From a plasmid, in assembly GCF_988243305.1 (NCBI RefSeq), contig NZ_OZ547138.1: DNA of 64,000 nt. One strand, written 5' to 3'. Every line of letters begins with the position of its first letter. Within the stretch, counting starts at the first letter, position 1. A model generated the notes under the pieces. The model saw only the letters and a list, made by a program, of their open reading frames with translations, was not told the DNA's origin and searched no databases. Of this stretch, positions 23,501 to 50,995 are shown piece by piece. A program made the position numbers and the translations under genes.

Positions 23501-23785
23501 CTCCACGACATATCTGTAGGGCTAACAGAAGACTGTCAGGTTGGCTGATTACTACACTGGAACCTGAGGTACTTTGCCTCAGGTTATGTTGACATACTCA
23601 AAAATAGATTCTTACATTATCCCGGTAACGGCGTCCTTCATCGGCCTGCCAGTTACCATCAATGGTATTGGTACCCTCGTTCTTTCTGTCTGTGATGTTA
23701 ATAAGGGCAAAATTAATCAGCATGTCTGGCAGGAATGATTCCGCGTCTGGCACAGCCAGGCACCTGATGGCATGAAATGCCGCTA

Positions 23786-23812
23786 AGCCCGCGTAATTGC
23801 GGGCTTTTTTTT
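23786..23812 (+). terminator. Strong orphan rho-independent terminator hairpin (possible small-RNA 3' end)
   Basis: AGCCCGC-gtaatt-GCGGGCT followed by eight T; no protein gene ends nearby on this strand. Confidence 0.4.
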
Positions 23813-24042
23813 GTTTGTGTTTGGCACGATCTGGCAACGGGAGGAAGCGCCAAGCACCGTTTGAGCATGGCATTAAAGCTGGTATTATGGTTTGGCGATG
23901 CCATGATTGATGCCGATACCATGCTGCGTTCTTTTGTGTGTTCATGGTATTAATATTCTATAAGTTACTGTTTCGTAAGAAAAAATACGATAAATTCGAG
24001 ATTTTTTCAGCATGGTATCGGAGACGAAGAAGGACAAGGTAC

Positions 24043-24591
24043 ATGCTGACCGATACCAAGCTGCGCAATCTCAAGCCCAGGGACAAACTCTACAAAGTGA
24101 ATGACCGGGAAGGTCTCTATGTGGCAGTGACTCCAGCCGGCTCCATCTCGTTCCGTTACAACTACTCAATCAACGGTCGGCAGGAGACCATCACCTTTGG
24201 GCGTTATGGTGTCGGTGGCATCACCCTGGCCGAAGCCCGCGAGCTGTTGGGTGACGCCAAGAAGATGGTTGCGGCGGGCAAGTCGCCGGCCAAGGAGAAA
24301 GCCCGAGACAAGGCGCGGGTGAAAGATGCAGAGACGTTCGGTGCCTGGGCGGAGAAGTGGCTGCGTGGCTACCAGATGGCCGACTCCACCCGCGATATGC
24401 GCCGCTCGGTTTATGAGCGTGAGCTGAAGCCGAAATTCAGCAATCAGAAGCTGGTGGAGATCACCCACGAAGACTTGCGGGCGCTGGCTGATGCCATTGT
24501 TGAGCGAGGCGCACCGGCCACCGCCGTTCATGTGCGTGAAATCGTGTTGCAGGTATTTCGCTGGGCCATCGAGCGTGGGCAGAAGGTCGAA
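24043..24591 (+). pseudogene. int: N-terminal fragment of a P4-like tyrosine integrase, truncated by IS26
   Basis: MLTDTKLRNLKPRDKLYKVNDREGLYVAVTPAGSISFRYNY is a typical integrase arm-binding N-terminus; the frame runs into the IS26 terminal repeat at 24592. Confidence 0.6.
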
Positions 24592-25411
24592 GGCACTGTT
24601 GCAAATAGTCGGTGGTGATAAACTTATCATCCCCTTTTGCTGATGGAGCTGCACATGAACCCATTCAAAGGCCGGCATTTTCAGCGTGACATCATTCTGT
24701 GGGCCGTACGCTGGTACTGCAAATACGGCATCAGTTACCGTGAGCTGCAGGAGATGCTGGCTGAACGCGGAGTGAATGTCGATCACTCCACGATTTACCG
24801 CTGGGTTCAGCGTTATGCGCCTGAAATGGAAAAACGGCTGCGCTGGTACTGGCGTAACCCTTCCGATCTTTGCCCGTGGCACATGGATGAAACCTACGTG
24901 AAGGTCAATGGCCGCTGGGCGTATCTGTACCGGGCCGTCGACAGCCGGGGCCGCACTGTCGATTTTTATCTCTCCTCCCGTCGTAACAGCAAAGCTGCAT
25001 ACCGGTTTCTGGGTAAAATCCTCAACAACGTGAAGAAGTGGCAGATCCCGCGATTCATCAACACGGATAAAGCGCCCGCCTATGGTCGCGCGCTTGCTCT
25101 GCTCAAACGCGAAGGCCGGTGCCCGTCTGACGTTGAACACCGACAGATTAAGTACCGGAACAACGTGATTGAATGCGATCATGGCAAACTGAAACGGATA
25201 ATCGGCGCCACGCTGGGATTTAAATCCATGAAGACGGCTTACGCCACCATCAAAGGTATTGAGGTGATGCGTGCACTACGCAAAGGCCAGGCCTCAGCAT
25301 TTTATTATGGTGATCCCCTGGGCGAAATGCGCCTGGTAAGCAGAGTTTTTGAAATGTAAGGCCTTTGAATAAGACAAAAGGCTGCCTCATCGCTAACTTT
25401 GCAACAGTGCC
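24592..25411 (+). mobile_element. IS26: IS26 (820 bp) copy 1
   Basis: 14-bp terminal inverted repeats GGCACTGTTGCAAA (24592) and TTTGCAACAGTGCC (25411); no 8-bp target duplication. Confidence 0.95.
24655..25359 (+). CDS. tnpA: IS26 transposase Tnp26
   Basis: 234 aa MNPFKGRHFQRDIILWAVRWYCKYGISYRELQEM. Confidence 0.95.
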   Translation: MNPFKGRHFQRDIILWAVRWYCKYGISYRELQEMLAERGVNVDHSTIYRWVQRYAPEMEKRLRWYWRNPSDLCPWHMDETYVKVNGRWAYLYRAVDSRGRTVDFYLSSRRNSKAAYRFLGKILNNVKKWQIPRFINTDKAPAYGRALALLKREGRCPSDVEHRQIKYRNNVIECDHGKLKRIIGATLGFKSMKTAYATIKGIEVMRALRKGQASAFYYGDPLGEMRLVSRVFEM

Positions 25412-47330: not shown

Positions 47331-47368
47331 CTTAGCGTAGGATTTCGCCCTCTCCCGCAAACGACCCC
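47331..47368. mobile_element. Tn5393-type 38-bp terminal inverted repeat downstream of strB
   Basis: CTTAGCGTAGGATTTCGCCCTCTCCCGCAAACGACCCC, a Tn3-family GGGG...CTAAG repeat. Confidence 0.7.
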
Positions 47369-47381
47369 AGGAGGAAAGGGC

Positions 47382-47606
47382 ATGAAGAAGCCGAACCAAG
47401 ACGACGAGCCGTTTTTCATCACCGAGGAGATTGCGGCCGAAATGATCGCCGGCGGCTATGAGTTCGAGCTGCCGCCCATTCCTTGCACCATCCGCCTACG
47501 CGACGTGCTGGAGCGCATGACCGATGCTGAGCTAGCATTGCAGCCGGGCGAGATCGCCGACCAGGAGCGTGAACGCTGCCGGCGCAAGCCGTGTTCAACC
47601 TCATGA
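47382..47606 (+). CDS. Small hypothetical ORF just outside the Tn5393 IR
   Basis: AGGAGG RBS 6 nt upstream of ATG; 74 aa; function unknown. Confidence 0.3.
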   Translation: MKKPNQDDEPFFITEEIAAEMIAGGYEFELPPIPCTIRLRDVLERMTDAELALQPGEIADQERERCRRKPCSTS

Positions 47607-47705
47607 TCTGGTCATGGTATTTTTCATGGCACTGAGCCTGATAGTTCTTGCAAATTGTTGTCACTAAAGGGTTTTGTGTGCTTGTTTACAATCGAGTGGG
47701 AGTGA
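47606..47705. repeat. ISCR2-associated end-like sequence, copy M (motifs CATGGTATTTTTCATGG and CTTGTTTACAATCGAGTGGGA)
   Basis: Shares two motifs at identical 51-nt spacing with 50893-50995. Confidence 0.4.
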
Positions 47706-47816
47706 CGGGCACTGGCTGGCAATGTCTAGCAACGGCAGGCATTTCGGCTGAGGGTAAAAGAACTTTCCGCTAAGCGATAGACTGTATGTAAACACAGTAT
47801 TGCAAGGACGCGGAAC

Positions 47817-49310
47817 ATGCCTCATGTGGCGGCCAGGACGGCCAGCCGGGATCGGGATACTGGTCGTTACCAGAGCCACCGACCCGAGCAAACCCTTCTC
47901 TATCAGATCGTTGACGAGTATTACCCGGCATTCGCTGCGCTTATGGCAGAGCAGGGAAAGGAATTGCCGGGCTATGTGCAACGGGAATTTGAAGAATTTC
48001 TCCAATGCGGGCGGCTGGAGCATGGCTTTCTACGGGTTCGCTGCGAGTCTTGCCACGCCGAGCACCTGGTCGCTTTCAGCTGTAAGCGTCGCGGTTTCTG
48101 CCCGAGCTGTGGGGCGCGGCGGATGGCCGAAAGTGCCGCCTTGCTGGTTGATGAAGTACTGCCTGAACAACCCATGCGTCAGTGGGTGTTGAGCTTCCCG
48201 TTTCAGCTGCGTTTCCTGTTTGCCAGCCGGCCCGAGATCATGGGGTGGGTGCTGGGCATCGTTTACCGCGTCATTGCCACGCACCTGGTCAAGAAAGCGG
48301 GCCATACCCACCAAGTGGCCAAGACGGGCGCGGTCACCCTGATCCAGCGTTTTGGATCGGCGCTCAATCTGAATGTTCACTTCCACATGCTGTTTCTCGA
48401 CGGTGTGTATGTCGAGCAATCCCACGGCTCAGCGCGTTTCCGCTGGGTCAAGGCGCCGACCAGCCCAGAGCTCACCCAGCTGACGCACACCATCGCCCAC
48501 CGGGTGGGTCGCTATCTGGAACGGCAAGGCCTGCTGGAACGGGATGTCGAAAACAGCTATCTGGCCTCGGATGCGGTGGATGACGACCCGATGACACCCC
48601 TGCTGGGGCACTCGATCACTTACCGTATCGCTGTCGGTTCACAGGCGGGGCGAAAGGTGTTCACTTTGCAAACTCTGCCGACCAGTGGTGATCCGTTCGG
48701 TGACGGGATTGGCAAGGTAGCCGGGTCCAGCCTGCACGCCGGCGTGGCGGCCAGGGCCGATGAACGCAAGAAGCTCGAACGGCTGTGCCGGTACATCAGC
48801 CGCCCGGCGGTATCCGAGAAGCGGCTGTCGTTAACACGAGGCGGCAACGTGCGCTACCAGCTCAAGACGCCGTACCGGGACGGCACCACGCACGTCATTT
48901 TCGAACCATTGGATTTCATTGCAAGGCTGGCCGCCCTGGTACCGAAGCCCAGAGTCAACCTAACCCGCTTCCACGGGGTGTTCGCACCCAACAGTCGGCA
49001 CCGGGCGTTGGTCACGCCGGCAAAACGGGGCAGGGGCAACAAGGTCAGGGTGGCTGATGAACCGGCAACACCAGCACAACGGCGAGCGTCGATGACATGG
49101 GCGCAACGGCTCAAGCGTGTTTTCAATATCGACATCGAGACCTGCAGCGGCTGCGGCGGCGCCATGAAAGTCATCGCCTGCATTGAAGACCCTATAGTGA
49201 TCAAGCAGATCCTTGATCACCTGAAGCACAAAGCCGAAACCAGCGGGACCAGGGCGTTACCCGAAAGCCGGGCGCCACCGGCTGAGCTGCTCCTGGGTCT
49301 GTTTGACTGA
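47817..49310 (+). CDS. rcr2: ISCR2 rolling-circle (IS91-family) transposase
   Basis: 497 aa with Cys-rich zinc-binding N-terminus (CESCHAEHLVAFSCKRRGFCPSCGARRM) and HUH-type core; classic sul2 neighbour. Confidence 0.9.
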   Translation: MPHVAARTASRDRDTGRYQSHRPEQTLLYQIVDEYYPAFAALMAEQGKELPGYVQREFEEFLQCGRLEHGFLRVRCESCHAEHLVAFSCKRRGFCPSCGARRMAESAALLVDEVLPEQPMRQWVLSFPFQLRFLFASRPEIMGWVLGIVYRVIATHLVKKAGHTHQVAKTGAVTLIQRFGSALNLNVHFHMLFLDGVYVEQSHGSARFRWVKAPTSPELTQLTHTIAHRVGRYLERQGLLERDVENSYLASDAVDDDPMTPLLGHSITYRIAVGSQAGRKVFTLQTLPTSGDPFGDGIGKVAGSSLHAGVAARADERKKLERLCRYISRPAVSEKRLSLTRGGNVRYQLKTPYRDGTTHVIFEPLDFIARLAALVPKPRVNLTRFHGVFAPNSRHRALVTPAKRGRGNKVRVADEPATPAQRRASMTWAQRLKRVFNIDIETCSGCGGAMKVIACIEDPIVIKQILDHLKHKAETSGTRALPESRAPPAELLLGLFD

Positions 49311-49485
49311 CGAGCCTGAAGGCCAACGATACCAATCAAAATGCTGCGTTCACAGCGCCGCGGCAGGGATCCGCCGTGCTGGTTGTCGGAAAAGGAGCCG
49401 CTAGTGGGAAAGAGGAGGGTAAATTTTCAGCGTTGCTGGCTCCCCGTCAGCCGGATTGGGTTGCATCGCAGGGGTGTCGAAAGAG

Positions 49486-49788
49486 TCAACTGCGGTCCAA
49501 AGCTGTTGGACTTGGGTGAAAAGGGCGTTTATTCTTCCTATACGTTGTCGGCAGCGGGCCAAAAAGGAATACGTCCATGCCCATCGAGGTGAAACCGGCT
49601 GTGAGCGCGGGTTCAAGCATATAGCCCGACAGGCGCGTATCCTTGCCGATCACGACACGATGGCGGTGGTCACCGCGACGAAAGACACGGCCAGCCGCCA
49701 TGCCGACGCGCAAGGCGGTTTCCGCCGTCATCGCGCCTTCGTTGGCTTTGCCACGAATACCGTCTGTGCCGAAATATTTGCGCACCAT
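49486..49788 (-). pseudogene. glmM: Truncated phosphoglucosamine mutase gene (glmM remnant)
   Basis: N-terminus [18 protein letters not shown] of GlmM followed by out-of-context sequence; lies between ISCR2 and sul2. Confidence 0.7.
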
Positions 49789-49874
49789 AAGGTCGATTAT
49801 CCTGTCGTCGGGTCGCCCTCAAAGGGGACATGCCTGCTGAACCGCGAATATAGAGAAATATCCCGAATGTGCAG

Positions 49875-50690
49875 TTAACGAATTCTTGCGGTTTCTTTCA
49901 GCGCCGCCAATACCGCCAGCCCGTCGCGCAAGGGGCGCGGCTCGTGTGTGCGGATGAAGTCAGCTCCACCTGCGGCGGCGGCAAGCTCTGCAGCGAGTGT
50001 CGCGGCCCCGACATCCCCCGGACCACGGCCTGTGAGCGCGCGCAGAAAGGATTTGCGCGAAACAGACAGAAGCACCGGCAAATCGAAGCGCAGCCGCAAT
50101 TCATCGAACCGCGCCAGCACCGAGAGCGAGGTTTCGGGAGCAGCCCCCAGAAAAAACCCCATGCCGGGATCAAGGACAAGGCGGTTGCGTTTGATACCGG
50201 CACCCGTCAGCGCCGCGATGCGCGCGTCAAAGAACGCCGCAATGTGATCCATGATGTCGCCAGCGGGTGCCTCGCGCCGATCTGCCTGCCCGTCTTGCAC
50301 CGAATGCATAACGACGAGTTTGGCAGATGATTTCGCCAATTGCGGATAGAACGCAGCGTCTGGAAAACCGCGAATATCATTGAGATAGGCCACACCACGC
50401 GACAAGGCATAGGCTTGCGTCGCGGGTTGATAACTGTCGAGCGAGACGGGAATGCCATCTGCCTTGAGCGCGTCCAGCACCGGCGCGATACGCGCGATTT
50501 CTGTGTCGGACGAAACAGGCGCGGCGTCGGGATTGCTGGATGCCGGACCGAGGTCGATCACATCTGCCCCCTCGGCCATCAGCTTACGCGCCTGCGCAAT
50601 GGCTGCGTCTGGCGCCAGATACCGGCCTCCATCGGAGAAACTGTCCGAGGTTATGTTGACGATGCCGAAAATGATGAGCGATTTATTCAT
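49875..50690 (-). CDS. sul2: Sulfonamide-resistant dihydropteroate synthase Sul2
   Basis: 271 aa MNKSLIIFGIVNITSDSFSDGGRY. Confidence 0.95.
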   Translation of the reverse strand: MNKSLIIFGIVNITSDSFSDGGRYLAPDAAIAQARKLMAEGADVIDLGPASSNPDAAPVSSDTEIARIAPVLDALKADGIPVSLDSYQPATQAYALSRGVAYLNDIRGFPDAAFYPQLAKSSAKLVVMHSVQDGQADRREAPAGDIMDHIAAFFDARIAALTGAGIKRNRLVLDPGMGFFLGAAPETSLSVLARFDELRLRFDLPVLLSVSRKSFLRALTGRGPGDVGAATLAAELAAAAGGADFIRTHEPRPLRDGLAVLAALKETARIR

Positions 50691-50892
50691 GGGGGCTTCT
50701 ATAATAATAATAATCGAGCATGAGTCTCATACGGATGCTCGGGTCGAAAGGGAATCCCCAGGCGAGTAACCTGTTTGCGGTGATCCATTAGCTGCAGGAG
50801 CAGAATAGCATACATCTGGAAGCAAAGCCAGGAAAGCGGCCTATGGAGCTGTGCGGCAGCGCTCAGTAGGCAATTTTTCAAAATATTGTTAA

Positions 50893-50995
50893 GCCTTTTC
50901 TGAGCATGGTATTTTTCATGGTATTACCAATTAGCAGGAAAATAAGCCATTGAATATAAAAGATAAAAATGTCTTGTTTACAATAGAGTGGGATC
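50893..50995. repeat. ISCR2-associated end-like sequence, copy R, beyond sul2
   Basis: CATGGTATTTTTCATGG ...51 nt... CTTGTTTACAATAGAGTGGGA. Confidence 0.4.

Follow-up and report, generated by a model that had tools for sequence, protein, structure and literature searches.

Attachment sites flanking the CR2-sul2 unit

The 64-kb plasmid window analysed here (64,000 nt of contig NZ_OZ547138.1) carries ISCR2, a glmM remnant and the sulfonamide resistance gene sul2 as a segment, the CR2-sul2 unit, that is flanked by two copies of a conserved motif pair. These two pairs are very probably the attLR (47613–47701) and attR (50905–50993) attachment (att) sites of the GIsul2 family of guaA-targeting tyrosine integrases, arm sites included. 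Motif 2 is an att site that is already known, as its coordinates match those of the published attLR and attR, and motif 1, as an accessory 'arm' site, appears to be previously undescribed.

Motif 1, CATGGTATTTTTCATGG, is located on the plus strand at 47613–47629 and 50905–50921, and motif 2, CTTGTTTACAAT(C/A)GAGTGGGA, lies on the same strand at 47681–47701 (C variant, copy A) and 50973–50993 (A variant, copy B). The initial annotation of the window had reported that both motifs occur twice with the same spacing of 51 nt and with unrelated spacers, and this description was borne out. Each motif is present in exactly two copies, with no third copy of either in the 64-kb window when two to three mismatches were tolerated, and the spacer measures 51 nt in both cases (47630–47680 and 50922–50972). 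The two spacers agree at 15 of 51 positions, whereas the motifs agree at 37 of 38; the flanks are unrelated, with 35% identity over the left 100 nt and 17% over the right 100 nt. The chance expectation in the window is 0.01 for motif 1, with none of 100 shuffled sequences containing two or more copies, and 0.00 for motif 2. As a refinement of the earlier description, motif 1 proved to consist of a 7-nt unit repeated in tandem every 12 nt. The P-arm tandem of copy A (47614–47632) reads ATGGTAT-ttttc-ATGGCAC, with its putative arm-type integrase-binding units at 47614–47620 and 47626–47632, and the P arm of copy B (50897–50924) consists of a conserved TTCTGA followed by ATGGTAT-ttttc-ATGGTAT, with units at 50906–50912 and 50918–50924; both are on the plus strand.

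GIsul2 has three att sites, attL and attR at the ends of the island and attLR 112–130 bp upstream of rcr2; the core GAGTGGGA is common to all three, and the attLR core contains the start of the proposed ISCR2 terIS (Zhang et al. 2022, PMC9376610). The tyrosine integrase of GIsul2 uses these sites both to excise the CR2-sul2 unit and to integrate it, and deletion of int or of the att sites abolishes mobilisation, whereas rcr2, resG and rep are unnecessary for integration and deletion of rcr2 has no effect (PMC9376610). In the same study, circular excision products of GIsul2 and of the CR2-sul2 unit were detected and their junctions sequenced, AlpA was found to boost excision of both, with a raised yield on over-expression, and the integrase proved able to re-insert the CR2-sul2 circle, either at attB, the guaA 3' end, or at secondary sites of degenerate sequence. 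The window agrees with the published system (PMC9376610; Nigro & Hall 2011; Harmer et al. 2017) in the core, the site positions, the 3,292-bp unit and the integrase gene, and differs from it in the location of the island, a GGA secondary site of an IncI plasmid, and in the truncation of int by IS26. Its attLR is 112–130 bp upstream of rcr2, as published, and the core end at 50993 is 303 nt upstream of sul2, against a published distance of ~304 bp for attR. The main text of PMC9376610 defines the att sites as 19 bp, with the motif 1 tandem, the IHF (integration host factor)-like element and the phased GGCA array described below going unmentioned.

The 8-bp core GAGTGGGA is present in both flanking sites. 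Motif 2 of copy A (47681–47701), the GIsul2 attLR, comprises a core-type region and the crossover core at 47694–47701, and the published 19-bp site corresponds to 47687–47705. Motif 2 of copy B (50973–50993) is attR for both GIsul2 and the CR2-sul2 unit, with its core at 50986–50993, and the IncI backbone resumes at 50991–50994 with a shared GGA. Motif 2 encodes the 3' end of guaA (ACA ATC GAG TGG GAG TGA, T-I-E-W-E-stop). Motif 2 would provide a core-type binding region together with the crossover core. The integrase recombines the GAGTGGGA cores of attLR and attR, and the unit is thereby excised as a circle (PMC9376610). For this plasmid, the junction of the 3,292-bp circle would read ACAATAGAGTGGGA joined to GTGACGGGCACTGG, and that of the deleted plasmid ACAATCGAGTGGGA joined to TCTGGGAATTC.

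Counted between the ends of cores A and B, the CR2-sul2 unit is 3,292 bp long, and it differs by only 1–2 mismatches from copies in Sphingopyxis, Luteimonas, Alloalcanivorax, Brevundimonas and a Caulobacterales metagenome-assembled genome (MAG) (L104, L007, L010, L060 and L073). With 1–2 mismatches, this 3,292-bp unit is inserted exactly at the GAGTGGGA of the host guaA in four unrelated species, Luteimonas wenzhouensis, the Caulobacterales MAG, Alloalcanivorax balearicus and a Brevundimonas MAG. The host coding sequence to the left differs in each of the four and the 12-kb island is absent. These insertions provide natural evidence for site-specific movement of precisely the core-to-core segment. 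The sul2 side, up to 50992–50995, is common to thousands of plasmids.

attP-type junctions were also observed. In an IS26-bounded region of an E. coli chromosome (L002, 20527–21040), the arm and core from the sul2 side run straight into the GIsul2 P' arm and an int that is truncated, and in Pseudomonas saliphila and Alteromonas antoniana (L035, position 3209, and L066) they run into the CR2 5' end. Such junctions look like tandem copies or captured circles. One candidate for a full GIsul2 (H117) was rejected, as it is an IS26-bounded fragment with a sul2-attP-int junction.

Putative arm-type repeats in the P and P' arms

The GIsul2 integrase contains an Arm-DNA-bind_3 domain (PF13356; residues 2–88, E = 1e-19 in Pfam), and the presence of this domain makes arm-type sites the likely reading of motif 1. 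The most probable role of motif 1 is that of a pair of arm-type sites in the P arm to which the integrase binds, and its tandem, ATGGTAT-N5-ATGGTAT, would be bound by the N-terminal Arm-DNA-binding domain of the integrase. The unit recurs six times, in both orientations, within the ~310 nt that separate the attL core from the int start codon (window 23767–24018). These P'-arm units, which lie within 23732–24042, are ATGGCAT at +33 and +133, ATGCCAT at -164, ATACCAT at -182 and ATGGTAT at +210 and +278, and all six occupy identical positions in the chromosomal 12-kb island of E. coli P377 (L003). For CATGGTAT, 1.5 occurrences are expected in the window and seven were found, six of them inside att arms. 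Repeated non-core sites are thus found in both arms at conserved positions, as in lambda-type att sites.

We compared the arms across relatives by scanning one genome per species with the exact 18-mer GTTTACAATNGAGTGGGA as query. At least 120 stretches were listed, a sample that the exact 18-mer biases towards relatives with this core-type sequence; all counts of arms and sites given below refer to these listed matches. They held 67 distinct upstream arms, 54 of which were kept for having a guaA-type stop after the core, a criterion independent of the arm sequence. Copies A and B are included in the 54 sequences from which the arm profile was built, and among the 105 sites for which 130 nt or more of upstream sequence were available, 35 have the identical B arm. 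The tandem RYGGYRY-N5-RYGGYRY ends 48–50 nt before motif 2 in 42 of the 54 distinct arms, which corresponds to a spacer of 51–53 nt as measured in the initial annotation, and it was found at any other offset in none of the 54. Among the variant units ATGGCAT, GTGGTAT and ACGGTAA, both copies of the tandem change together.

The unit also varies with the integrase. A second subfamily, 51–63% identical to the GIsul2 integrase and likewise targeting the guaA core, is associated with islands that carry GACGGTAA in place of ATGGTAT. In the P' arms of these islands (L025, L111, L115, L093 and L080) the repeats lie at ~+134, -186, +198 and +269, positions nearly matched by the GIsul2 units ATGG(C/T)AT at +133, -164, -182, +210 and +278, and P arms with an ACGGTAA tandem at the standard offset are present in L054 and L124. 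An E. coli island whose Int is 89% identical (L126, SCPM-O-B-7615) has an unrelated arm sequence with the same layout and a spacer of exactly 51 nt. In L111 and L115, CR2-sul2 units with ATGGTAT arms directly adjoin second-subfamily islands.

The spacer, the IHF-like element and the phased GGCA array

The consensus of the 54 arms reads TTCTGA, ATGGTAT-N5-ATGGTAT, ~17 nt, TAAGCCATTGAT, ~12 nt, AAAATGG, CTCGTTTACAAT and GAGTGGGA. The exact IHF consensus occurs in 12 of the 54 arms, always 30 nt before motif 2, compared with 0.27% of shuffled spacers, and it is also present at the corresponding position in L126. The elements of the window start at the same distance from motif 2. That of copy A, CAAATTGTTGTCA (47651–47663, plus strand), is degenerate, with two mismatches to YAANNNNTTGATW, and that of copy B, TAAGCCATTGAAT (50943–50955, plus strand), has one mismatch to the consensus. 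An IHF-type bend within the 51-nt spacer would bring the arm-bound domain to the core, and we propose that a protein-induced bend, which would constrain the length of the spacer but little of its sequence, accounts for a constant length combined with a drifting sequence. The evidence for a role of IHF at the -30 element is suggestive, and the role is not established.

A terIS was reportedly proposed by Toleman et al. in 2006 in their work on ISCR elements. The CR2 5' end, which is the P' side of the unit's att site (47702–47742, plus strand), overlaps this proposed terIS, GGGAGTGACGGGCACTGGC, and contains GGCA or AGCA at +7, +17, +27 and +37 from the core. Sixteen other distinct sites have this phased array after their core, and in many of them the cargo that comes next is unrelated and includes no rcr gene, indicating that the array belongs with the att site and not with the IS91-like gene. 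The attL of GIsul2 itself has GGCA at +15, +25 and +35. The phased units to the right of the core, the so-called terIS, would constitute the other arm of the unit's att site. They are a possible binding array for AlpA, the recombination directionality factor, or a core-proximal array for the integrase; that AlpA may bind them is speculation by analogy with the TorI sites of KplE1. Other loci contain rcr2 homologues, diverged (43–88% amino acid identity) and for the most part decayed, that begin ~115 nt after an att core, as rcr2 does in CR2 (L048 at 3267+115, L066, L058, L097, L105, L118 and L008). This constant distance suggests that the association of rcr2 with the att site is old and not confined to the clinical element.

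Assessment of the att-site assignment and its alternatives

Several observations weigh against the assignment set out above, in particular against its arm component. The arm role of motif 1 is drawn from sequence, with binding putative. Zhang et al. deleted the 19-bp att sites only, and a minimal int+attL plasmid integrated without any P arm (PMC9376610), which means that motif 1 is not essential for every reaction. No ATGGTAT unit is present in the CR2 5' region, so an excised circle would have arm-type sites on one side only. The exact IHF consensus is absent from copy A (two mismatches) and copy B (one mismatch). The cognate integrase is truncated in the window, and function here therefore depends on a helper. 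Finally, no complete island of the ACGGTAA subfamily with the unit in both arms was found among candidates from E. coli, Ralstonia, Sphingomonas and Acinetobacter. The E. coli matches were all of the ATGGTAT type, the Ralstonia island lacks a recognisable attR within 47 kb and the Acinetobacter plasmid candidate is a fragment. A 3,975-bp 'plasmid' of Sphingomonas parapaucimobilis (L127, NZ_CP155767.1) that carries guaA, int and alpA was rejected as a replicon or excised circle, as it is probably an assembly artefact.

The strongest competing explanation accepts motif 2 as the att core and assigns motif 1 to another protein, with the AlpA-type excisionase as the candidate. We consider it unlikely, although excisionases often bind short direct repeats on one arm, as TorI does in KplE1, and although alpA adjoins int and AlpA enhances excision of both GIsul2 and CR2-sul2. 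Covariation of the unit cannot separate the two proteins, as Int and AlpA co-vary with the island subfamily. The 7-nt unit, however, is found in both arms and in both orientations, even just upstream of the int start codon. Such a two-arm pattern is that of arm-type integrase sites (P1/P2 and P'1-3 of lambda, P' of KplE1), whereas excisionase sites are usually confined to one arm, and a more suitable candidate for the excisionase is the phased GGCA array that adjoins the core.

The initial annotation had suggested that the motifs are functional sites and not a plain duplication, for example rolling-circle origin or termination signals of ISCR2. The constant spacing and the diverged spacer support the first part, but the second, in which the pair would be the terIS and oriIS where the HUH transposase Rcr2 starts and stops replicative transposition, is largely refuted and in our view very improbable. 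In its favour, the Y2_Tnp and Zn_Tnp_IS91 domains of Rcr2 are intact, and copy A adjoins the terIS as proposed; ISCR2 copies found in other contexts have their left boundaries at 47694–47699, inside the motif 2 core. The idea that the motifs map the ISCR2 ends thus holds for copy A, which coincides with the proposed 5' (terIS) boundary, but not for copy B. The oriIS-side end of ISCR2, ending in GGCGTTTATTCTTCCTATACGT (49515–49546, plus strand), is where homology to ISCR2 copies in other contexts stops (~49545/6); this boundary resembles neither motif and falls 1.4 kb short of copy B, on the other side of sul2. Furthermore, mobilisation survives deletion of rcr2 but not of int or att (PMC9376610), and the motif pair is also present in integrase-bearing islands, rcr-less cassettes and dozens of loci without an IS91-like gene. 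The leading CTTG of motif 2, which had been put forward as an IS91-family end signal, is not conserved in relatives, where CTCG, CCCG, TTCG, ATTG, GTTG and others take its place. A tetranucleotide that varies this freely is not an IS91-type target, and motif 2 is instead the 3' end of guaA. We conclude that rcr2 is cargo of the CR2-sul2 unit and that integrase-mediated movement is independent of it.

A shared promoter or operator, through which copy A would regulate rcr2 and copy B sul2, is more improbable still. Both copies do lie upstream of genes, 116 nt before rcr2 and 213–303 nt before sul2 on the other strand, but their orientation relative to the gene is opposite in the two cases, the rcr2 promoter and LexA box map elsewhere (47778–47797), and relatives have the architecture at the guaA end irrespective of which gene lies beside it. 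Motif 2 was likewise rejected as a promoter with TACAAT as the -10 element: there is no suitable -35, the two copies have opposite orientations with respect to their neighbouring genes, and the sequence codes for the GuaA C-terminus. A functionless relic duplication with a decayed spacer, or a chance similarity, is refuted by the contrast between motif and spacer identity, a chance expectation of ~0, the offset kept across many diverged arms and the experimental demonstration of recombination at the sites (PMC9376610). The outcome that would have undone the initial interpretation, one copy being internal to ISCR2 and the other a chance match, does not apply; both are genuine homologous sites.

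Content of the CR2-sul2 unit

The local order is strA-strB, a 335-bp tail of the GIsul2 backbone, copy A, ISCR2, the glmM remnant, sul2, copy B and the IncI backbone (trbC). Between the two sites the only open reading frames of at least 90 aa with an assigned function are rcr2, the glmM remnant and sul2, and the unit has no integrase of its own. The rcr2 gene (47817–49310, plus strand, ATG at 47817) encodes the IS91-like HUH/Y2 transposase of ISCR2 (ISVsa3). Its promoter, with the -10 element TAGACT (47778–47783) and the LexA box CTGTATGTAAACACAG (47782–47797), lies on the plus strand between copy A and rcr2. Activity of the ISCR2 promoter and LexA binding have been demonstrated experimentally in a 2026 study of SOS control (PMC13393415); that the 'terIS region' of that study overlaps the GIsul2 att site goes unmentioned there. 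The remnant of glmM (phosphoglucosamine mutase; 49486–49788, minus strand) is identical to a segment annotated as phosphoglucosamine mutase in L002, and sul2 (49875–50690, minus strand, ATG at 50690) encodes a sulfonamide-resistant dihydropteroate synthase. A search for structured RNA with Rfam returned just one chance match (E = 0.22), located inside rcr2.

The GIsul2 derivative in the IncI plasmid

The window is identical to NZ_CP145695.1 and belongs to an E. coli IncI-gamma/K1 plasmid. The left junction and P' arm of GIsul2 (23732–24042, plus strand), 24 kb upstream of copy A, were located only through the P'-arm repeats, as the core there is degenerate: attL shares only the GGA at 23732–23734, followed by GGCA at +15, +25 and +35, and these positions are identical in L003. 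An uninterrupted backbone relative (L005) reads CATGTCTGGCAGGA followed by TCTGGGAATTC, with just GGA in common with the core. On these junctions, the entry of GIsul2 into the IncI backbone at the degenerate GGA is a secondary-site integration, comparable to that at the GGGA site reported for IncC plasmids. The int gene (24043–24591, plus strand) is cut after codon 183 of 400 by IS26 (24592–25411), and no functional cognate integrase is present in the window. With neither an intact int nor an attL with a full core, the window holds a GIsul2 derivative and not a complete island.

The whole 27-kb multiresistance region (~23732–50993) is a decayed GIsul2, with a poor attL, a dead integrase, and attLR and attR that remain intact with their arms. 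It is inserted between a TolA-like gene and trbC of the IncI backbone, carries mph(A), chrA, a class 1 integron, TnAs1, tet(A), strAB and CR2-sul2, and is analogous to ARI-B of IncC plasmids. At 47367–47369, sequence downstream of strB that is common to many strAB contexts meets the last 335 bp of the GIsul2 backbone, an arrangement shared by 73 plasmid records.

With int destroyed by IS26, the CR2-sul2 unit is non-autonomous and cis-mobilizable and moves only with a related integrase supplied in trans. Given such an integrase, the organisation of its sites suggests that it could be excised from this plasmid. Among 5,426 complete E. coli genomes, approximately 260 encode a GIsul2-family integrase, which makes trans-mobilisation of plasmid-borne copies plausible, and guaA-integrated islands in E. 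coli chromosomes are potential helpers for plasmid-borne CR2-sul2. Two islands were observed at guaA in E. coli, the 12-kb island without CR2-sul2 ('GI12K') of strain P377 (L003) and a 13.4-kb relaxase-bearing relative (L126).

Comparison with known recombination systems

The attP of phage lambda is the classical heterobivalent tyrosine-integrase site, with arm-type sites P1/P2 and P'1-3 and IHF sites H1, H2 and H'. The sites described here share with lambda-type att sites a separate arm-binding domain in the integrase and repeats unlike the core on either side of it; the arm sites likewise overlap the int promoter region, and a putative bend site separates arm from core. They differ in the sequence, number and spacing of the units, whose binding is predicted here, and in the integrase, which is P4-like (Arm-DNA-bind_3) and, unlike that of lambda, targets the 3' end of a protein-coding gene. 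A further analogue is the IntS/TorI system of KplE1, with its P' sites and TorI excisionase sites (PMC2951348).

As an att-flanked segment without its own integrase, the CR2-sul2 unit also corresponds to the cis-mobilizable elements (CIMEs) known, together with tandem accretion, from ICESt1/ICESt3 of Streptococcus thermophilus (PMC5704250). Both occur in tandem with an integrase-bearing element and are excisable by the integrase of the neighbour. The integrase family, the target and the host phylum are different, and CR2-sul2, unlike CIMEs, also spreads alone into guaA of species without the 12-kb island. With ISCR2/IS91 rolling-circle elements the unit shares an intact IS91-like rcr2, whose promoter is regulated by LexA, and the proposed terIS, which overlaps copy A; in contrast, the motifs are not ISCR ends, copy B is outside ISCR2 and the 'terIS' is also present in att-bounded cassettes that lack rcr.

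Cassettes at guaA and significance

In many environmental Gammaproteobacteria, a search with the arm profile revealed two to four att-like sites that follow one another in tandem with a common orientation, in several cases directly beside guaA (L044 with four sites, L014 and L118 with three each, and L049, L057, L059, L062, L084 and L087). The segments delimited by these sites are 0.8–3.7 kb in length and integrase-less, start with the phased GGCA array and end with a full arm. Pfam confirmed ParDE, PIN/VapB, GNAT/TacA, Phd and Gp49/HigB-like modules among their cargo, and a Fic-like protein, an AAA ATPase and HipAB were assigned from sequence. Decayed rcr2 homologues are present in some of the segments, ~115 nt after the core. 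No adjacent integrase or common promoter was seen at the guaA cassettes, and no published description of such arrays was found in the literature searched; the sample is small and biased. These toxin-antitoxin cassettes alone resemble integron cassette arrays, in being tandem, uniformly oriented and integrase-less, with a recombination site at the end and a fixed chromosomal locus, but they differ from integrons in having ~105-nt double-stranded att arms of a P4-like integrase and not folded attC sites recognised by IntI.

We tentatively suggest, with somewhat less than even confidence, that the two-motif architecture defines a widespread and undescribed class of small integrase-less cassettes, arranged in tandem at guaA in environmental Proteobacteria and mostly encoding toxin-antitoxin systems, of which CR2-sul2 is one that captured an IS91-like gene and sul2. 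A cassette of this class would start just after GAGTGGGA with the GGCA array and end with TTCTGA, the two ATGGTAT units, the IHF-like site and the core-type site. If so, the 5' 'end' of ISCR2 would be an integrase/AlpA recombination arm and not a transposon terminus, and the integrases of guaA islands would operate a cassette system resembling that of integrons.

The extended site, with its arm repeats, fixed spacing, IHF-like element and GGCA array, offers targets for mutagenesis and a sensitive signature for related units. The results also speak for a reinterpretation of the sequence annotated as the 'terIS' of ISCR2. These findings fix the mechanism for ISCR2-sul2, one of the commonest resistance modules of Gram-negative plasmids: as the module is bounded by integrase att sites, its spread depends on the integrases of guaA islands and not on its own IS91-like transposase.

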